Virus genome (UHGV): UHGV-1577189 | DNA: 16,327 nt | Strand: one strand, 5' to 3' | Source of the DNA: a virus | In this document: piece after piece, positions 599-16,327 of the stretch | Numbering within the stretch: position 1 is the first letter of the stretch | Layout: each line of letters opens with the position of its first letter | Translations under genes and position numbers: made by a program | Notes under the pieces: model-generated | Told to the model about the DNA's origin: nothing | Databases searched by the model: none | Seen by the model: the letters and a program-made list of their open reading frames with translations, nothing else

Positions 599-1447
599 TT
601 AATGTTGGAGTGATTTCCAGGTCTTTCTTAGCCTGTTATAACGCTGCTCAACGAGGGAGCGTAAATATGCAAGGTCAGCACCAGGATACATGCCATCAGC
701 AAATTCCTGGCTAACCTCTCTAGTGATTTGATGACGAAGTTCGGCCTCTCCCTTTTCCTGAACAAGACGCGCAGCTCTCTCCGCTGCTTTCTGTTTTGCC
801 TTTATCTCTCTGGCCGTCTTCCTCTGACGCCATACATTCTCCATCTGCTCCTGAATAACAATACGCTTATAATCAGCCTCCGTTATCGCTTTTTTAAGCC
901 GTTCGCTATTCTTCGCATTGAAGTAATTAAGTTTCTGGCTAACCGCACGTCTCCATGCTTGTTCAGTAATACCAACTGTTTCCAGCAGTTGATCACGAAT
1001 CTCGATTTTCGCTGGCCAATACTGTTTATTCACCCGATCCCAGCGACGTTCATAATCAATAAAACCTAACTCTTTCAGTTGCGACAACGCCCTTGTACAG
1101 CGCGTTATAGACTTGTTCCCAGCTTCGGATACGGTAGACAGGCCGCAAAAATCAGCCAACGCCTCAGCACTGGCCAGAACCCGCTTAGAAATGATGTTTA
1201 CATGGTGCAAAATCGCAGCAATCACAGCATTAATCGCCCGACGACGATGCTCGTTTATCCGGCGTTTCCGCTCTGACGGTTGATTAACGTAGAACGCAAC
1301 CTCACACGTAAGATCACGACCATTAATGCGCTGTAAAGCATCAGATAACACCAGCGGCAGCTTGTGCGTATGGTGCTTTGGAGGCTGGAACTCCGGCGAC
1401 AAATTACAAACGTAAGCTGAACGTAGAGACGGCATTGGTCTATCCAT
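599..1447 (-). CDS. repA: Plasmid replication initiator RepA (IncFII RepA1 family)
   Basis: Translation aligns by eye with R100/R1 RepA1, e.g. GLSTVSEAGNKSITRCTRALSQLKELGFIDYERRWD against GLATESAAGKLSITRATRALTFLSELGLITYQTEYD. The ORF extends to 1591, but the ATG at 1447 (MDRPMPSL) gives a RepA1-like length and places the CopA-like element in the leader. Confidence 0.8.
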   Translation of the reverse strand: MDRPMPSLRSAYVCNLSPEFQPPKHHTHKLPLVLSDALQRINGRDLTCEVAFYVNQPSERKRRINEHRRRAINAVIAAILHHVNIISKRVLASAEALADFCGLSTVSEAGNKSITRCTRALSQLKELGFIDYERRWDRVNKQYWPAKIEIRDQLLETVGITEQAWRRAVSQKLNYFNAKNSERLKKAITEADYKRIVIQEQMENVWRQRKTAREIKAKQKAAERAARLVQEKGEAELRHQITREVSQEFADGMYPGADLAYLRSLVEQRYNRLRKTWKSLQH

Positions 1448-1492
1448 ATGTTCGCTCTTGCGTCCACGGAAAACCAACGTATAATGGGAGTA

Positions 1493-1575
1493 GTCGAGGC
1501 GCCCATGGTTAGTTGTTGGTTTTCCTTTCCGTGGATGTCGCAAGAAGCCCGCAGATTTATCTGCGGGCTTTTTGT
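1493..1575 (+). ncRNA. CopA-like antisense RNA candidate (copy-number control), antisense to the repA leader
   Basis: Sigma70-like promoter: -35 TTGCGT (1458-1463), 16-nt spacer, -10 TATAAT (1480-1485). Perfect 10-bp stem AAGCCCGCAG/CTGCGGGCTT (1545-1570) followed by TTTGTTT; position and orientation match IncFII CopA. Confidence 0.45.
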
Positions 1576-1762
1576 TTCCATATCTGGTCACTTTTCAACC
1601 AGACACCCACAATTATAACCACTTTACGTGGTTTTAAGAGAACTCTACCACAACACTTTCGGTCATGCACGAAGTCTCTCACTGATCGAACGATAATCCA
1701 CCAGTAAAAGGATCTAAATTGGATCTCGTTTTGCGAGCATCATACTACTGGCCTAACTCCAG

Positions 1763-2317
1763 TCAATGATTCCCAGCCGGAAACCTGCGGTAAAGCGTGG
1801 ATAAGGTAACATCGAAGATAATCGCTATCCGCTTACGTGAAACACCATTCGCAATAAGCCTTCCGATCTGTTCCCATTGCTCTGGTGCCAGCTTTGAGCG
1901 GCGTCCTCCTATCCTGCCGTTAGCCCTTGCCACCGCCAATCCTGCACGCGTTCTTTCAATCATATTTTCCCGCTCCATCTCTGCGACTGCACTCAGCATC
2001 GTGTAGGCAAAGCGGCCAATTGAAGTGCTAATTTTTATCCCTTCCGTAATCGAAATAAACTCAATGTCGTTTGATAAAAAATGGTTAAGTAAATCAACAA
2101 GATGAATCAGAGAACGCCCCATTCGGTCCAGCTTCCAGACAATAACCGTATCGCCCGGTCGTAACACCTTCAGTAGCTTATCAAGTCCTGGTCGTTTTGA
2201 TTTAGCACCGGATATTTTATCTTCAAAAATCCGGTCACATCCTGAACTCCTGAGCGCCTCCAGTTGTAATTCCAAATTCTGGTCAAAAGTTGACACCCTC
2301 GCATAACCATATTGCAT
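1763..2317 (-). CDS. Serine recombinase, resolvase/invertase family (likely plasmid multimer resolvase)
   Basis: 184 aa; N-terminal YARVSTFDQNLELQLEAL with catalytic-serine context and C-terminal HTH, typical of small serine recombinases. Confidence 0.85.
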   Translation of the reverse strand: MQYGYARVSTFDQNLELQLEALRSSGCDRIFEDKISGAKSKRPGLDKLLKVLRPGDTVIVWKLDRMGRSLIHLVDLLNHFLSNDIEFISITEGIKISTSIGRFAYTMLSAVAEMERENMIERTRAGLAVARANGRIGGRRSKLAPEQWEQIGRLIANGVSRKRIAIIFDVTLSTLYRRFPAGNH

Positions 2318-4055: not shown

Positions 4056-4333
4056 GCCACAGCCCCTCTCAACGGCTTAACTTTGGCTAATAAGGTGTTA
4101 AACAACATGGAGTTAGGATTCATGCCAAATGGCAATTCCGGTTTAGCGGAGTAGTACAGGCAACCATTTATTTTCCTGGTTGTTATCTGTCCTTCGGCAA
4201 CCATGCTTCTCAGTCTGCAACGCATAGAGTTCTGCGACACACCAATGTGCTCCGCGATTACGTCCACTTTTGAACATGGGTGATCGGTCAGGAAATTAAT
4301 CACATCTTGGGGGTTAATAATTTTGCGTTTCAT
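4052..4333 (-). CDS. Putative winged-helix DNA-binding protein (about 93 aa)
   Basis: ATG at 4333 with RBS AAGGA about 10 nt upstream (the ATG at 4354 has none); first gene after an AT-rich promoter motif. Confidence 0.5.
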   Translation of the reverse strand: MKRKIINPQDVINFLTDHPCSKVDVIAEHIGVSQNSMRCRLRSMVAEGQITTRKINGCLYYSAKPELPFGMNPNSMLFNTLLAKVKPLRGAVA

Positions 4334-4380
4334 TGTCGAGGCGTCCTTATACATTTATATAAATATATAATTCTATATAC

Positions 4381-4398
4381 GGCGGGAGATATCCCGCC
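4381..4398 (-). terminator. GC hairpin downstream of the 4411..5478 gene, candidate terminator
   Basis: 7-bp stem GGCGGGA/TCCCGCC with 4-nt loop, followed on the minus strand by an AU-rich tract. Confidence 0.4.
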
Positions 4399-4410
4399 GT
4401 AGGCTTACTG

Positions 4411-5478
4411 TCAGGCTTTCAATAGCGATTCTTTCAGATATCGGGCATCAGCCAGGGCGTTTGGAGTAATCTTGCGAACCCATGCATTACGGGTTGGACT
4501 CCACTTAAAGGCGCGTGATTTAAGCAGCGAACGAATGTTTGCCTCTGGTTTGCCAGGGAAATAAAACAGGATGCGGTTATCCTCTGGATCTATCTCCATA
4601 GAAAAGCCGTCGTATTCTTCGCGCTGTGCTCCTGTTACAGACTTGACCGATTCAAGCTCCTTAATACGGCTCTGTAGTCGTTTGATTTCGGCCTTATTGT
4701 TGCTCAGTGCGTATGAAGGGAATCCGATGTGCCCACAGAAATCTCCGGCCAGTAACTCTTTGGCTTCGCTTTCTGTAAACCTGAGATCGATTAATGCAGA
4801 AAGCTGCTGTAATTGGTCTTTTTTGTATTTGCGAATGGCCTTATTTGCTGCCTTCATTTTGACGTGTGACTTCATGCAGCCTTGCAGCTTACGAAGCAAC
4901 TTAAATAGCGCATCAGGATCATCAGACGAAATTCCATTACGACCAACACCTGCGGCTTTGCTCTCGTAGTGTGATGCTTTACTTTCGCATTCAACAAACG
5001 CTTTTCTGAATAACGCATCAGCTTTAGACAAACGGCGGCGATGGCCTTTCGCGCTATAATGGTCAACTAAAATCGGCTGGCCTAACGGGATCACATCCAA
5101 CAGGTCATGCGCTCGCTTATGCGCTACCGCACCTTCTTTTCTGGCTTTTTCTGCACGAGCAATATATCGGGCAAGACGCGCGTTCTGGCGTTCCTGATAG
5201 GTGTTTACGTAATCATCTCCGCGCTGCTGCTGTTCAAGCCATGCTTTGCGCAGATCTTCTGTTACGTCCACCAGCTCCGCAGGGATACAACCAGTTTGGG
5301 CTTCATAAGAGTAACCATCCTCATAGATACGCCCATCGTCTTCAACAAAGAAAAAGGTTTCGTGCTCATCGCTTTTGACCATACGACCATTAACATGGCG
5401 TAATAGGTAGCCAGTATCAGTGCTTAACAGGCTGTTAGGGTTGTTGATCCAGTCAGAAATAATTACTTGTTTATTCAT
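4411..5478 (-). CDS. DUF3560-like domain protein (355 aa), function unknown
   Basis: ATG with RBS GGAGAAA; C-terminal half (GQPILVDHYSAKGHRRR, ISSDDPDALFKLLRKL, FKWSPTRNAWVRK) matches my memory of the DUF3560 family. Confidence 0.7.
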   Translation of the reverse strand: MNKQVIISDWINNPNSLLSTDTGYLLRHVNGRMVKSDEHETFFFVEDDGRIYEDGYSYEAQTGCIPAELVDVTEDLRKAWLEQQQRGDDYVNTYQERQNARLARYIARAEKARKEGAVAHKRAHDLLDVIPLGQPILVDHYSAKGHRRRLSKADALFRKAFVECESKASHYESKAAGVGRNGISSDDPDALFKLLRKLQGCMKSHVKMKAANKAIRKYKKDQLQQLSALIDLRFTESEAKELLAGDFCGHIGFPSYALSNNKAEIKRLQSRIKELESVKSVTGAQREEYDGFSMEIDPEDNRILFYFPGKPEANIRSLLKSRAFKWSPTRNAWVRKITPNALADARYLKESLLKA

Positions 5479-5484
5479 CAGATT

Positions 5485-5580
5485 TCTCCGGTTTAACCAG
5501 GGCGGGTATCGCTCGGTTTCGGGTATAACCTTAGGAAATTTTTTCCCACCTGTAAAGCACTTTTTATATAAATCTATAAT
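5485..5580. repeat. 96-bp promoter/leader module, copy 1 (3 mismatches to 14556..14651)
   Basis: Direct comparison of the two segments; lies immediately upstream of the start codon at 5478. Confidence 0.85.
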
Positions 5581-5647
5581 TATATATTTATAGATTTTCG
5601 ATGTTCCCGATGTCTACACACCATCAAAACAGCTCAAAATGACACTT

Positions 5648-7998: not shown

Positions 7999-8017
7999 TT
8001 AACGAACTCCAGTTAAA

Positions 8018-8135
8018 ACCACGATATGTGGTATTAAAACCACATATCGTGAGTTTTTCAATGGGCGAAACAAAAAATAACCTTCTATTTGTGGTCCACC
8101 TCTCGTCTTACCATGTGAAAACCACTAAATGTGGT
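8018..8135. promoter_or_regulatory. Operator cluster between divergent cro-like and cI-like genes
   Basis: ACCAC-GATAT-GTGGT (8018-8032), ACCAC-ATATC-GTGAG (8039-8053, imperfect), ACCAC-TAAAT-GTGGT (8121-8135), all in A-rich context. Confidence 0.6.
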
Positions 8136-8172
8136 AATGTATAAATAACCCACCATTCACGATTGATGAGAC

Positions 8173-8829
8173 ATGAAAAGCAACGACGAGAACATCAAGA
8201 AAGAAATAGGTCTGCGCATTCAGACTCTACGGAAACAATCCGGCATGACTGCCGGAGATCTCCAGCAAGTCACTGGAATAGGCTTAAGCACCTTGCAGAA
8301 CTATGAGGCCGGATTAAGACAACCATCGATACCTGCCATCAAGAAAATCGCGCACGCCCTGAAAGCATCAGCGCCTTATATCGCGTGCTTAACAGATAAC
8401 CCGTTCCCACCCCAGAATACTAACGCTCCTGTTATTCCTGGGCTTGTAGCTATAAAAAATGACATAGCATCGCACGCCGGAGAAAAGCCAGTGCTGGCGA
8501 TAGAACAGGAGATTCTACGAAGCAAGAACATCAACCCATCGTCTCTGTCAGTTCTCCAGAGCAACGATGAGTTAATGTCACCAACAATATCCCCTGGCTC
8601 CCAAGTCCTGATTAATACAGACGATACAGAGATTCATGAGGGGATCTATGCCCTTGAAGACAGAAATGGCCTGGTTGTTTTGAGGCACTGTAGAGTCATA
8701 CCGGGTGACAATGCTGTTATGCTGTCAACCGAAAGGGATGCTGAAATGAACACTAAGCATCTGAATAACGAGGAATTTAAGCGTTATAAAGTTCTTGGCC
8801 GCGTAGTTAGTGTTGTCAACTGGTTATGA
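8173..8829 (+). CDS. CI-like phage repressor: N-terminal HTH_XRE plus C-terminal S24 (LexA-like) domain
   Basis: 218 aa; HTH LRKQSGMTAGDLQQVTGIGLSTLQNYEAG; C-terminal beta-rich domain with an Ala-Gly dipeptide (SHAGEKP) and conserved Lys (RYKVLGRVV); catalytic Ser context is atypical (ELMSP). Confidence 0.8.
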   Translation: MKSNDENIKKEIGLRIQTLRKQSGMTAGDLQQVTGIGLSTLQNYEAGLRQPSIPAIKKIAHALKASAPYIACLTDNPFPPQNTNAPVIPGLVAIKNDIASHAGEKPVLAIEQEILRSKNINPSSLSVLQSNDELMSPTISPGSQVLINTDDTEIHEGIYALEDRNGLVVLRHCRVIPGDNAVMLSTERDAEMNTKHLNNEEFKRYKVLGRVVSVVNWL

Positions 8830-8871
8830 TACACAGCACGGCGAAAGCCGTGCATTTCTACGCTCAAAAAA

Positions 8872-8886
8872 ACCACATTATGTGGT
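8872..8886. promoter_or_regulatory. Fourth ACCAC-N5-GTGGT operator (ACCAC-ATTAT-GTGGT) between the repressor gene and the next ORF
   Basis: Same palindrome family as 8018-8135; followed by TTGACA (8888-8893) and RBS AGAGG before the ATG at 8922. Confidence 0.5.
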
Positions 8887-8921
8887 TTTGACAACATGTA
8901 AAAGTATAAAAGAGGCTACGC

Positions 8922-9296
8922 ATGGAATTACATACAGCCAATAAAAATGAAACTCTGATCACTGCTGGAATCGAAATCCAAGCGTTGAACATAGCGATTG
9001 AGTGTATGTTATGCCAAATCATTGATAATGAGAAAGATATCGACTGGATAGAATCTATCCTTCATCTGGCATCAGAACAAAAAGTCTGCCTCAAAACGGC
9101 CTTGCAATACGATGTGCCAGCGGTATCGAAGCTGTGCCAGCCATTGATGGCATATAACAGGGCTATTATTTCTGTATGCCTCATGATTCTTGATGAAAAC
9201 ACCCCTCTTAGCGACCGCTCAGAAGCTGCTCTAACCCTCTCACGTAAACAGCGACAGCTAGCAAATCAACTGATATCAACGATAGCTGACCTCTGA
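8922..9296 (+). CDS. Hypothetical protein (124 aa) co-oriented with and downstream of the repressor
   Basis: ATG with RBS AGAGG; followed by a hairpin at 9301-9320; no family recognised. Confidence 0.55.
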   Translation: MELHTANKNETLITAGIEIQALNIAIECMLCQIIDNEKDIDWIESILHLASEQKVCLKTALQYDVPAVSKLCQPLMAYNRAIISVCLMILDENTPLSDRSEAALTLSRKQRQLANQLISTIADL

Positions 9297-9300
9297 CTGC

Positions 9301-9320
9301 AAGCGGGCTAACGCCCGCTT
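9301..9320 (+). terminator. Hairpin terminator candidate after the 8922..9296 gene
   Basis: 8-bp stem AAGCGGGC/GCCCGCTT with loop TAAC, followed by an A/T-rich tract. Confidence 0.4.
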
Positions 9321-9425
9321 ATATGATTATAGATTTATATAATTATATAAAACACTTTCCATCCGCCAAAAAGTTGGTTATGCTTACCTCGTTCTATAAA
9401 TATAGATTTATAGAATTATATAACC
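9321..9425. repeat. AT-rich repeat region upstream of parA (candidate centromere/operator)
   Basis: Two copies of ATAGATTTATA(T/G)AATTATATAA at 9321-9351 and 9394-9423; the same motif family recurs at 4354-4380, 5563-5597, 10099-10131 and 14634-14665. Confidence 0.5.
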
Positions 9426-9446
9426 AAACACATGGAGTCTCGACAA

Positions 9447-10100
9447 ATGACTATCTCTGTAGGTATTTTCAACGGAAAAGGCGGCGTAACCAAATCAACA
9501 ATTGCCCGTGCTTTAGCAGTTGCTTATGCAAAGGCTGGCTGGAATGTATGCCTGATCGATATGGATGTGCTTAACGGAACGGTAACGCGTTGGGTACAAC
9601 GCAGAATGGCCAACAATATCGAACCAGCAATCGCGGCGCAGCCGTGCGGCACACCATCACAAGTCCAGAAAATCATCGAATCAGAAGTATACGACCTGGT
9701 TATCGTTGATGGCGGTGCCTACGCATCTGAATCAGTACCGAAGCTATCTGAATTTCTGGATATGGTTATTTTGCCAACCCGATTCTCTACCGATGACCTG
9801 GAAACCACCGTTAACACTGCTCACGGCATCGTTAAAAAGGGTGTGCCAATCAAGAAAATTTGCATGGTGTTTTCCGGCGCGGCTGAAAATGAAGCTGACT
9901 ATATTGAAGCCCAAGAGTACCTGGCTAATACGCCATACTTTGTTGTCGATAAGTACATTCCCCACAAGCCAGCTCTGAGCAAAGCTCAGGATAAGGGCTT
10001 AAGCCTCATTGAATGCTCATACGTTGCGCCACGCAAAAAGGCAGACGACGTTATTCAGGGGATTATCAACCAGCTTGAGGCTCTGACTACTGCCGCGTAA
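9447..10100 (+). CDS. parA: ParA-family partition ATPase (small type Ib, no N-terminal HTH)
   Basis: Deviant Walker A GKGGVTKST; about 217 aa. ATG at 9447 is preferred over 9432 because GGAG lies 9 nt upstream. Confidence 0.85.
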   Translation: MTISVGIFNGKGGVTKSTIARALAVAYAKAGWNVCLIDMDVLNGTVTRWVQRRMANNIEPAIAAQPCGTPSQVQKIIESEVYDLVIVDGGAYASESVPKLSEFLDMVILPTRFSTDDLETTVNTAHGIVKKGVPIKKICMVFSGAAENEADYIEAQEYLANTPYFVVDKYIPHKPALSKAQDKGLSLIECSYVAPRKKADDVIQGIINQLEALTTAA

Positions 10101-10143
10101 TATATAATTATAGTTTTATAGATTTATATAAGAGGGGATACAC

Positions 10144-10392
10144 ATGGCCGCACCATCAAAACCACCAAAGAAGAACAGCAAAGGCGTACCGCCATCGATC
10201 GAACAACCGCAGGTTTTCGACCCGACTGAAACGCCAACCAGAACCAAATCAGGTGGGGCACAAATGGCGTTTAACGTCGACCCTGAATTTAAACGCGAGT
10301 ACAAAACGTTCGCCAGTTCAATGGATATGTCATTGAAAGAAGTGCTGACAAAATCTTTTGAGTTACTCAAGGCTCAATACAACCAGAAGTAA
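10144..10392 (+). CDS. ParG-like ribbon-helix-helix centromere-binding protein
   Basis: 82 aa, basic disordered N-terminus; C-terminal MAFNVDPEFKREYKTFASSMDMSLKEVL resembles the TP228 ParG RHH segment; RBS AAGAGGGG; directly downstream of parA. Confidence 0.6.
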   Translation: MAAPSKPPKKNSKGVPPSIEQPQVFDPTETPTRTKSGGAQMAFNVDPEFKREYKTFASSMDMSLKEVLTKSFELLKAQYNQK

Positions 10393-10604: not shown

Positions 10605-10718
10605 ATGTAGCCATAAAAAAGGCGGGCAACCAACCCGCCTCATTAGAGGTCAACGTCTCTTAGAAACCATCAAATTCGTCATACCGCTTTTTCATATCAA
10701 CCCCGTATTGAAATCGTA

Positions 10719-10733
10719 ACCACATCTTGTGGC
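10719..10733. promoter_or_regulatory. Isolated operator-like site ACCAC-ATCTT-GTGGC
   Basis: Same ACCAC-N5-GTGG architecture as the immunity-region operators, but about 1.8 kb away, between two hairpins. Confidence 0.35.
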
Positions 10734-10792
10734 TCTTACGGTATATAAGCTACTGCAATGGTAAACAGCTATCAAATGCAGGTTGCAGTAAA

Positions 10793-10940: not shown

Positions 10941-11219
10941 TGTGTGGCCCTTACAGGCCGTTTCACGGCATCCCCACCGACGAAAATGACGCGAGAGCAA
11001 GCACGCTGTTTGTGCCTGCGTGGTACGGCAAGTGGATAATCCTTTCCTGAAAGTCAGTGCCCGGGTGCGAATCGGCGGAAAGGCCCCAAGCCATATTACA
11101 CGTCATACCCTTCATAATGAAGGAATAAAAAACGCTTTTATTACATGAGATTACACGTAAATAAGTTAAAAACCTTCATTTTGCATGAGCTAATGAGCTA
11201 AATTTTTTTATATGAATAG

Positions 11220-11352
11220 TGGACTATTCACCTCAGTTGGGTAAGAATGTAGTTGCTGTTTGTGCTTGCGTGGTTGTATTAGTACAACGACGTTATGCTG
11301 AAAGGACCGCGAATCCGATCAGCACGAAAGAACCGTCCTCAATAGGGCGGTT
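11220..11352 (+). ncRNA. Candidate small RNA ending in a rho-independent terminator
   Basis: Terminator ACCGTCCT-CAAT-AGGGCGGT followed by T7 (11325-11352); carries a 20-nt copy (11255-11274) of a sequence at 11005-11024; possible promoter TTGCAT at 11181-11186. Confidence 0.35.
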
Positions 11353-11429
11353 TTTTTGTTTCTGCCTACCAATAAACCCACGCTATGTGGTTGTCTCTGT
11401 TAAAATCCCTCTGTATTGACATAAATGCG

Positions 11430-14168: not shown

Positions 14169-14549
14169 TTACTTAACGAGGAATAAAAATGGTTTATTGT
14201 TCGGCGGTGTAATCGGGGCTGGCTCGCTTTTGCTCATGCGATCAGTGTACCAGGCCAGCTCCTTGTCAAAGTAAGCCTGATTAAAATAGGCCATGAATGT
14301 AGTTTCAAATCCATAACGACCGCTAATACGCAGCATCTGATTGCCGTTCTCTGTTTCCAGATATACCTGGGCACGTTCCTGATTCTCCTTCAGCCAGGTT
14401 AAAGCCTCATCGCACGAGGACACACGGTACTCATCATCGTAGCCGTCATCGATGCGGCTTGAAGAAGAACGGCAAATCACGCCAACAGAACCAGCCAGGA
14501 TAGTTTGAATTTTAAGGAAAGCATTTTTGCGGATTTTAATCATGCTCAT
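14169..14549 (-). CDS. Hypothetical protein (126 aa) driven by the duplicated promoter/leader module
   Basis: ATG with RBS GGAGA in the conserved leader; no family recognised. Confidence 0.6.
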   Translation of the reverse strand: MSMIKIRKNAFLKIQTILAGSVGVICRSSSSRIDDGYDDEYRVSSCDEALTWLKENQERAQVYLETENGNQMLRISGRYGFETTFMAYFNQAYFDKELAWYTDRMSKSEPAPITPPNNKPFLFLVK

Positions 14550-14555
14550 CGGGTT

Positions 14556-14651
14556 ATCTCCGGTTTAACCAGGGCGGGTATCGCTCGGTTTCGGTTATAA
14601 CCTTAGGAAATTTTTTCCCACCTGTAAAGCATTTTTTATATAAATATATAA
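14556..14651. repeat. 96-bp promoter/leader module, copy 2 (3 mismatches to 5485..5580)
   Basis: Direct comparison of the two segments; immediately upstream of the start codon at 14549. Confidence 0.85.
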
Positions 14652-14672
14652 TTATATAATTCTATGAGCACA

Positions 14673-14695
14673 AAAAAGCCCCTTTGCAACAGGGG
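14673..14695 (-). terminator. Terminator candidate after the HigBA-like operon
   Basis: Stem AAGCCCC/GGGGCTT flanked by A6 on the plus strand, i.e. a T6 run following the stem on the minus strand. Confidence 0.5.
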
Positions 14696-14712
14696 CTTAT
14701 CATTCGTTCTGA

Positions 14713-15012
14713 TCAGATGTTAAACGCTATTCGTTTTCCTGTGGGAAGCTCAACATCCAGGCTTAATTTGCCTCCCATAGCTTCAACGTAACGCTTTAAT
14801 GTCGCCAGCTTTAAATCATTTCCGCGCTGCTCCAGCTTTGTTACTGCTGGCTGGCTTATACCCATCGCCTCAGCAACCTGTTTTTGTGATAACTGGAGTT
14901 CTTCACGCATCATCTGCAAGCCGACCTCAAGAATCATCTCATCTGCCATTTCTTTAATTCGCGCCTGGCTTTCAGGTGAACGGCTGGCAATCACCTCATC
15001 TAATGTTCTCAT
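14713..15012 (-). CDS. higA: HigA-like HTH antitoxin (addiction module antidote)
   Basis: 99 aa; HTH LSQKQVAEAMGISQPAVTKLEQRGN; directly downstream of and overlapping a RelE/HigB-like toxin gene. Confidence 0.7.
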   Translation of the reverse strand: MRTLDEVIASRSPESQARIKEMADEMILEVGLQMMREELQLSQKQVAEAMGISQPAVTKLEQRGNDLKLATLKRYVEAMGGKLSLDVELPTGKRIAFNI

Positions 15013-15365
15013 TACTTGCTCTCCAGTGTGTTCAGATGTGCTGCAAACTCATCCTCAGCTATACGCACCAGTTTTTCATAAAACCGTTTATCGTTACTTT
15101 TGTCTCCTGCACAAAGAACGATGGCCCGGCGAATCGGATCGAACGCATAAAAGGCTCTTATCGGACGGCCAGAAAACTGAACGCGAAGCTCTTTCATATT
15201 TTTGTACCGAGAACCTTTTACGGTATCGGCATATGGCCTGGGTAACTCAGGTCCGTAAACCTGTAGCTTTTTCAAATCAGCCAAAACCTTTTCCTGAAGA
15301 GCGTCTTCTTGCTCATTTAGCCAGTCGTCAAATCGCTGGCTAAAAAGTACCGTCCACATGCTCAA
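15012..15365 (-). CDS. higB: HigB/RelE-family toxin (addiction module killer protein)
   Basis: 117 aa; motifs LRVQFSGRPIRAFYAF and IVLCAGDKSNDKRFYEK match the killer-protein family; toxin-first gene order is typical of HigBA. Confidence 0.7.
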   Translation of the reverse strand: MSMWTVLFSQRFDDWLNEQEDALQEKVLADLKKLQVYGPELPRPYADTVKGSRYKNMKELRVQFSGRPIRAFYAFDPIRRAIVLCAGDKSNDKRFYEKLVRIAEDEFAAHLNTLESK

Positions 15366-16272: not shown

Positions 16273-16327
16273 GTCTAATAGGAAACGATGTTTCTTACGT
16301 TTTATCGCGTTCTGATGGCTACTGTGT
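16273..16327. repeat. Terminal overlap copy 2 (identical to 50..104)
   Basis: Exact 55-nt match to the start of the biological sequence. Confidence 0.85.

Follow-up and report, generated by a model that had tools for sequence, protein, structure and literature searches.

Six AT-rich blocks in an enterobacterial phage-plasmid sequence are probably arrays of binding sites for an 82-aa, ParG-like ribbon-helix-helix (RHH) protein, serving both partition and the control of several operons. The DNA analysed, hereafter the window, is the whole stretch of 16,327 nucleotides. As judged from sequence comparison, what points to this protein is that the arrays stay with the parA/RHH gene pair on unrelated backbones and co-vary with it, the behavior expected of cognate sites. 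An earlier sequence-only reading had proposed that a ParG-like protein or another factor acts at sites beside the par genes that have spread to other operons. Comparison of relatives backs this proposal, and from it we infer binding and centromere activity.

Four phased 8-bp units at each of six sites

The sequence-only reading described a motif of about 22 bp that recurs at six sites. All six are present where it placed them, within a few bases. The recurrence was confirmed, but the repeating structure is different: each site spans 32 bp and consists of exactly four 8-bp units in phase, with the consensus TTATAKAW (6/6 sites; Table 1), and its edges against G+C-containing DNA are sharp. The palindrome TTATATAA is the commonest unit (8 of the 24), followed in our count by TTATAGAT (3 of the 24). 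Units occur in both orientations, with TTATATAA being the gene-proximal unit at five of the six sites, and the unit core (TAKA) is A/T-only. GC hairpins, previously noticed beside several sites, adjoin S1, S3 and S6.

Although the blocks are 88-100% A+T, their periodicity is not a by-product of AT-richness, since no shuffled block reproduced it. Identity at lag 8 within blocks was 0.757 and at lag 16 was 0.72, with all other lags from 1 to 15 at or below 0.59, whereas none of 5000 dinucleotide shuffles of the blocks reached the lag-8 value (mean 0.43, maximum 0.59). A three-unit pattern allowing up to three mismatches gave 22 matches in the window, all within the six sites, and none in 200 shuffles of the window. 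In addition, 29 or more A/T within 32 nt is reached nowhere in the 16.3 kb except at the six sites, and the next most AT-rich stretches showed lag-8 identities of 0.21-0.46. The earlier reading had itself raised the possibility that random AT-rich DNA would match equally well; the pattern scan and the shuffles place the sites far beyond chance.

Table 1. Features of the window, in order of position. Array units are written on the coding strand of the downstream gene.
Feature	Position	Strand	Details
repA	599-1591		IncFII-type
DNA invertase gene	1763-2317		
Winged-helix (MarR-like) gene	ATG at 4333	-	93 aa; heads operon extending to Ead/Ea22-like gene
Array S1	4347-4378	-	ATATAGAA TTATATAT TTATATAA ATGTATAA
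GC hairpin at S1	4381-4400		
DUF3560 gene	5478 to 4411	-	
Array/promoter/leader cassette, copy 1	5485-5592	-	108 nt, 95% identical to copy 2
Putative promoter at S2	5551-5556 and 5528-5533	-	TTTACA, 17-bp spacer, TAAGGT; array ends 7 nt upstream
Array S2	5564-5595	-	ATCTATAA ATATATAA TTATAGAT TTATATAA
CI-like HTH/S24 repressor gene	8173-8829		
124-aa ORF	8922-9296		just upstream of parA
GC hairpin at S3	9302-9319		
Array S3 (distal par array)	9319-9350	+	TTATATGA TTATAGAT TTATATAA TTATATAA
Putative sigma-70 parA promoter	9356-9384	+	TTTCCA (9356-9361), 17-bp spacer, TATGCT (9379-9384)
Array S4 (proximal par array)	9392-9423	+	TTCTATAA ATATAGAT TTATAGAA TTATATAA
parA	9447-10100	+	217 aa; small Walker-type (type Ib-like) partition ATPase
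Array S5	10100-10131	+	ATATATAA TTATAGTT TTATAGAT TTATATAA
RHH gene	10144-10392	+	82 aa; candidate ParG-like centromere-binding protein
126-aa gene	14549 to 14169	-	
Array/promoter/leader cassette, copy 2	14557-14664	-	
Putative promoter at S6	14623-14628 and 14600-14605	-	TTTACA, 17-bp spacer, TAAGGT; cassette as at S2
Array S6	14636-14667	-	TCATAGAA TTATATAA TTATATAT TTATATAA
GC hairpin at S6	14676-14698		
HigBA-like toxin-antitoxin pair	14713-15365	-	
Inverted repeat AACCAC-N5-GTGGTT	1617-1633, 8017-8033, 8038-8054, 8120-8136, 8871-8887, 10718-10734, 11376-11392		

The element and its gene content

The window is a circular contig of 16,223 bp, bases 50-104 being identical to bases 16273-16327 (55 bases). 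Contamination of the record accounts for bases 1-49, an Illumina Nextera adapter that ends CTGTCTCTTATACACATCT in reverse complement. The window corresponds to the plasmid-maintenance, immunity and early-gene portion of a family of ~48-kb E. coli phage-plasmids, to which pHN68-3, Yersinia phage vB_YpM_39 and an ATCC 25922 plasmid belong, at 97-99% identity. Phage-plasmids of this family are often met in E. coli, where the reference strain ATCC 25922 carries one, and also occur in Salmonella and among phages isolated on Yersinia. About 32.5 kb of the 48.7-kb pHN68-3 is absent from the window, comprising the lysis, methyltransferase, packaging, head, tail and tail-fibre genes. A junction segment (about 2396-2829) has no match in pHN68-3 and adjoins the invertase gene. 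The window could be a natural mini-derivative in which only plasmid and early functions are retained; otherwise it is an artefact of assembly.

Besides the genes for RepA, the repressor and partition, the window carries an ORF6N/Rha antirepressor-like gene and leftward early genes, including Ref, DUF1064 and DUF3560 genes and the small winged-helix gene. Residues 173-351 of the DUF3560 protein, its C-terminal half, match PHROG 19458, which is annotated as primase (E = 3e-36), and this gene, which is preceded by an array, may be replication-related. The HigBA-like pair, whose toxin is HigB/RelE-like (Gp49 family in relatives) and whose antitoxin has an HTH, lies directly upstream of the terminator that precedes S6.

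A second dispersed motif was observed in the window. The inverted repeat AACCAC-N5-GTGGTT occurs seven times compared with 0.62 expected. The CI-like repressor gene has three copies beside it, in the divergent region, and repA has one directly upstream; a further copy precedes the 124-aa gene and par operon, and the remaining two are found upstream of the antirepressor-like region. These repeats are probably operators of the CI-like repressor. If so, immunity would be tied to replication and partition.

A ParA and an RHH protein of a previously unannotated family

The ParA lacks an N-terminal HTH. It matches Pfam CbiA, ParA and MipZ as well as PHROG 164 (ParA-like), aligns over its full length with NCBIfam ParA_partition, below the cut-off of that model (78.6 vs 180 bits), and gives weak PDB matches to ParF (4dzz) and ParA (5u1g).

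The gene that follows parA encodes a protein with a disordered basic N-terminal tail (~1-40) and a C-terminal RHH domain (strand ~41-46, helices 47-59 and 64-80). Searched as a single sequence against PDB, Pfam and NCBIfam, it gave no match, and it falls in PHROG 6024, annotated "unknown function". While a word-indexed homologue search returned close relatives only, an exhaustive profile-free search reached a wider RHH family of ~55 proteins (62-105 aa, 33-48% identity). The family alignment keeps a basic, proline-rich N-terminus (MA..KPPKK..KG.PP), followed by a variable linker and a C-terminal block, LNF.V..EF.RE.K.FA...D.SM.ELL...FEL.K, which corresponds to strand, helix and helix as in RHH proteins. 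Pfam matches among 55 family members were to RHH_10 (19/55), Antitox_RHH (12/55) and ParG (1/55, E = 0.018); the 82-aa protein itself falls outside Pfam ParG (PF09274). Family members that we checked are labelled "hypothetical protein" throughout in public sources.

Structure prediction agreed with the alignment. In the AF2 model, built from the 55-sequence alignment, residues 41-80 had pLDDT of 89-94, and residues 1-40 had pLDDT of 60-67 and no secondary structure. The best 50 Foldseek matches in PDB were nearly all RHH proteins, including the PutA DNA-binding domain, CdbA, AmrZ, CopG, Arc and ParD; the best dozen had target-normalised TM-scores of 0.63-0.87 and rmsd of 1.0-2.4 Å over 42-46 columns. 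Compared with TP228 ParG (PDB 1p94), the family profile gave E = 0.68, and hhalign placed the RHH domains in register with 53% probability and E = 1.4e-4. By these comparisons, the family is only distantly ParG-like, and the 82-aa protein is ParG-like in architecture and lies outside the ParG sequence family. We found no literature on the partition system of this phage-plasmid group.

Arrays occupy two fixed positions in control regions

Every array lies just upstream of a gene and on the coding strand of that gene (6/6). The transcription units concerned are those of parA (two arrays), the RHH gene, the DUF3560 gene, the 126-aa gene and the winged-helix gene, with all promoters being predicted ones: the calls are weak consensus matches below the threshold of a consensus scan, and the -10 hexamer TAAGGT matches at 3/6 positions. 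Distal arrays (S2, S3 and S6) end 5-7 bp upstream of a -35-like hexamer and cover about -41 to -72; S3 ends 5 nt upstream of the putative parA -35. At the position of the parA promoter, relatives have TTTACA-17-TAAGCT, TTTACC-17-TAAGAT or TTTACA-17-TATGCT, and TTGCAG-17-TAATAT is also found in relatives where a promoter follows a distal array. Proximal arrays (S1, S4 and S5) precede the ribosome-binding site, on the downstream side of the transcription start or of the preceding gene. S4 would form about +1 to +32 of the transcript predicted for parA; it stops 23 nt short of the ATG of that gene and about 10 nt upstream of the ribosome-binding site. S5 extends from the parA stop codon to the Shine-Dalgarno sequence of the RHH gene. 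S1, which is preceded by its hairpin and has no recognisable promoter of its own, directly abuts the Shine-Dalgarno sequence of the winged-helix gene.

Arrays S2 and S6 belong to duplicated cassettes composed of array, promoter and leader, of which a third copy is present in full-length relatives including pHN68-3. Taken with the ribosome-binding site, a cassette of ~110-125 nt fronts three unrelated genes (5474-5592 and 14546-14671 in the window, and 46126-46251 in relative L012) with 92-95% identity. We rejected an RNA element in the shared leader, where predicted structure is not significant (fold z-score -0.96). The ribosome-binding regions after S1 (ggacgcctcgacaATG, 4333-4346) and S4 (ggagtctcgacaaATG, 9424-9449) are also similar, and the proximal parA operator and ribosome-binding site may have been copied to the front of the winged-helix gene as the S1 cassette.

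These positions bear on whether the RHH protein, if it binds all arrays, uses S1, S2 and S6 only as extra centromeres and leaves the neighboring genes unregulated. There is precedent for dispersed centromeres in the phage-plasmid N15, which has four separate sites (IR1-4), and four contiguous repeats are the ParA-activation threshold in pSM19035, where any single omega site suffices as centromere. We nevertheless consider this explanation unlikely, as all arrays are intergenic and keep to two positions, either just before the -35 or abutting or within ~10 nt of the ribosome-binding site, and none is found inside a gene or in the structural-gene half of the genome. Moreover, the array travels within a cassette that serves three different genes, and a four-dimer RHH coat at such positions is hard to square with unchanged transcription.

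Arrays co-vary with the RHH protein among relatives

We compared 12 relatives (L002, L003, L005, L007, L008, L009, L010, L011, L013, L014, L015 and L016), whose RHH proteins are 33-96% identical and whose backbones are those of phage-plasmids, conjugative plasmids and metagenomic contigs. They include the close relatives L002 and L003, the syntenic phage-plasmids Serratia marcescens p2 (L005), a Pantoea element (L010), L007, L008 and L016, two T4SS plasmids (L011 and L014) and three short contigs (L009, L013 and L015). The RHH gene follows a small parA in these relatives, except in L013 and L015, whose contigs are too short to tell. Phased 8-bp arrays were detected in all 12, upstream of parA and either in the parA-RHH gap or immediately downstream of the RHH gene. 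Four units per array is the usual count among the 12.

The unit differs between elements and tracks the two residues flanking a Phe that is invariant in the predicted beta-strand, at positions expected to face DNA. Proteins with A/S-F-N (window, L002 and L003) are accompanied by the unit TTATAKAW, N-F-N (L005, L008 and L010) by TTAAAKAT, T-F-N (L007) by WWATACAT, K-F-A and K-F-G (L015 and L013, respectively) by WWTGTACA, and F-F-W (L014) by WWTCATGM. The N-F-K proteins of L016, L009 and L011 pair with three different units, TTAAAGAA, TTAGCGAW and WTTAACGA (cores AAGA, GCGA and ACGA), so the two residues do not fully fix the core and the code is not clean. In cross-scans, each element showed enrichment for its own unit only. 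Cognate units occurred at 0.9-1.2 per kb compared with 0.04-0.24 for the unit of the sister lineage: TTATAKAW was found at 1.16 per kb in the window and 0.04 in Serratia, and TTAAAKAW at 0.24 and 1.04, respectively. Serratia homologues of the S2/S6 cassette have the -35, 17-bp spacer and -10 in place, with a related leader that shares the ribosome-binding region, and carry Serratia-type units in the array. This co-variation across backbones favors the ParG-like protein as the binder, rather than generic promoter DNA or sites for host proteins.

The number of arrays also differs between lineages. The 48.7-kb pHN68-3 has eight, all of four units and all in its early/plasmid half, with none in the 25-kb structural-gene half. 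Nine arrays were found within 24 kb of Serratia p2 and eight within 14 kb of the Pantoea contig. In the non-phage plasmids L011 and L014, arrays were found at the par locus only, so it is the phage-plasmid lineage alone that has them at other promoters. In this lineage, an ORF of 72-133 aa (124 aa in the window) is always located just upstream of parA, and its product may be a co-factor at the dispersed sites.

In a more distant case, Yersinia pestis pTP33 (L006), TCAC/GTGA boxes with ~6-10 bp spacing (~11200-11260) precede a more distant ParG-like homologue. These boxes are not 8-bp AT units and recall omega-type heptads.

Two further explanations place a different binder, or no plasmid-specific binder, on the arrays. 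The first would assign them to another element-encoded factor, either the 93-aa winged-helix protein or the 124-aa protein. Genes for both are conserved in the phage-plasmid lineage, the 124-aa homologue always lying between the CI-like repressor gene and parA, and the winged-helix gene itself has S1 in front of it. However, arrays with co-varying cores flank the parA/RHH pair in L011, L014 and the short contigs L013 and L015 without either gene, which leaves the RHH gene with its ParA as the sole constant neighbor of the arrays; the 8-bp register with 4-bp cores is, in addition, the pattern of RHH arrays in TP228. We therefore regard either protein as a rather improbable binder.

Slightly less probable still is that the blocks are generic AT-rich promoter DNA (-10/UP-element-like or curved) or targets of H-NS, Fis or IHF. 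Their composition, the many TATAAT-like hexamers on both strands and the location of the distal arrays in UP-element territory would fit this explanation, and arrays this AT-rich could act as UP elements or attract H-NS. It does not account for the strict 8-bp phasing, unmatched by shuffles of the same blocks, or for exactly four units at 6/6 sites here and 8/8 in the full-length relative. The unit changes together at all sites of an element, as with position 4, which is T here and A in Serratia, Pantoea and others, and units differ between elements even though all hosts are Enterobacterales. Relatives also have the G+C-containing cores GTAC, CATG, ACGA and GCGA in equivalent positions. These cores, and the separate -35/17-bp/-10 candidates that adjoin the arrays, also speak against the alternative offered in the sequence-only reading, that the motif marks a shared promoter class, and against simple -10 elements. 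Rep iterons were rejected: RepA is IncFII-type, and the array nearest to it is over 1.5 kb away on the circle.

Proposed mechanism and implications

In the explanation that we favor, with the RHH protein acting in partition and in the control of several operons, its binding, stoichiometry, direction of regulation and centromere role are modeled on TP228 ParG and omega. By this analogy, one RHH dimer would read the 4-bp core of each 8-bp unit via its beta-ribbon, and four dimers would cooperatively coat the 32 bp. S3, S4 and S5 would act as the centromere, where the disordered N-terminal tails of the RHH protein engage ParA, and also as the operator through which parA and the RHH gene are autoregulated. 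The DUF3560 gene, the 126-aa gene and the winged-helix operon would each have received a copy of the array in its control region, with two more copies in full-length relatives. Beyond segregation, the partition protein would thereby control plasmid-state and early genes globally, most likely by repression, and each array could be an extra centromere.

If this holds, the centromere-binding protein of these phage-plasmids is named and their centromeres are mapped. The arrays would then define a small regulon in which replication-associated and regulatory genes are expressed according to the level of the partition protein, making the system a counterpart of omega in a Gram-negative phage-plasmid. 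An RHH partition protein acting as a multi-promoter regulator is not a mechanism new in kind; the protein family is a previously unannotated one. The pairing of beta-strand residues with repeat cores across the family offers directly testable specificity swaps.

A bolder proposal, which we put forward as possible but doubtful, is that the ParG-like protein is the master switch of plasmid state in a widespread phage-plasmid lineage of E. coli, Salmonella and Serratia, and that its family has a readable RHH code. On entry into a naive cell, which lacks the ParG-like protein, the arrayed promoters would fire, namely those of the DUF3560/primase-like gene, the regulators and, in full-length elements, the methyltransferase region. 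As the protein accumulates, it would shut these promoters and build partition complexes at 6-9 dispersed centromeres, with the array of 4 x 8 bp serving as a portable operator/centromere cassette. If this were true, the code, from beta-strand residues to 4-bp core, could be used to design orthogonal RHH-operator pairs.

Comparison with known partition systems

The sequence-only reading likened the dispersed sites to those of KorB, a partition protein with sites at many IncP promoters that coordinates partition with global gene control. The analogy extends to functional logic only. KorB is a large HTH protein of the ParB family that acts at a distance from 13-bp palindromes, whereas the candidate here is an 82-aa RHH protein with tandem 8-bp arrays; the window has no ParB-family ORF or ParB/KorB-type HTH gene, and the sites are not palindromic OB sites. 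N15 is a precedent as a phage-plasmid that has several separate centromere sites. Its four natural IR sites are dispersed around the genome, near the lysogeny and replication control regions. N15 differs in having a type Ia system, in which an HTH ParB (SopB) recognizes single 16-bp palindromes.

The par locus of the window has the traits of type Ib systems, with a small Walker ParA without HTH, a tail-plus-RHH protein downstream and 8-bp repeats beside par. In TP228, ParG binds ACTC boxes separated by 4-bp AT-rich spacers, with one dimer per box and in both orientations, and these sites are both operator and centromere (PMC3130281). The likeness to ParF/ParG lies in the gene order, a small Walker ParA and then a ~80-aa protein whose N-terminal tail is flexible and whose C-terminal domain is RHH, and in the arrays, which have an 8-bp register (4-bp core plus 4-bp AT-rich spacer), mixed orientations and a location upstream of the operon. 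In contrast, TP228 has 20 boxes in one contiguous region (parH/OF), whereas here four-unit blocks are found at six to eight places, including non-partition promoters; the core TAKA is A/T-only, the commonest unit is palindromic and similarity between the protein sequences is marginal (E = 0.68 to 1p94).

Omega of pSM19035, whose centromeres are parS1-3, represses the copS, delta and omega promoters via arrays of 7-bp heptads (PMC2441792). Full activation of its ParA requires no fewer than four contiguous repeats (PMC9499535), which fits the four units per array here. Both systems have short, unspaced repeat arrays before a parA-like gene, before the gene of the RHH protein itself and before non-partition genes. 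In pSM19035 the RHH centromere protein is a multi-promoter repressor and its arrays double as centromeres; we propose the same dual role here, repression being the part that we infer. The two differ in the repeats, with 7-10 WATCACW heptads per site in omega arrays compared with four 8-bp units, and in their hosts, a Gram-positive theta plasmid (Inc18, Firmicutes) compared with an enterobacterial phage-plasmid. Omega structures were absent from PDB sequence searches with the 82-aa protein or its family, and there is no detectable sequence relationship between them. The omega regulon comprises copy control and a toxin-antitoxin system, and the candidate regulon here comprises the DUF3560/primase-like gene, the winged-helix operon, the 126-aa gene and, in full-length relatives, the region before the methyltransferase gene. 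By sequence the 82-aa protein belongs to neither family; by analogy, the system that it would form resembles a hybrid of the two, combining the geometry of ParG with the regulon logic of omega.
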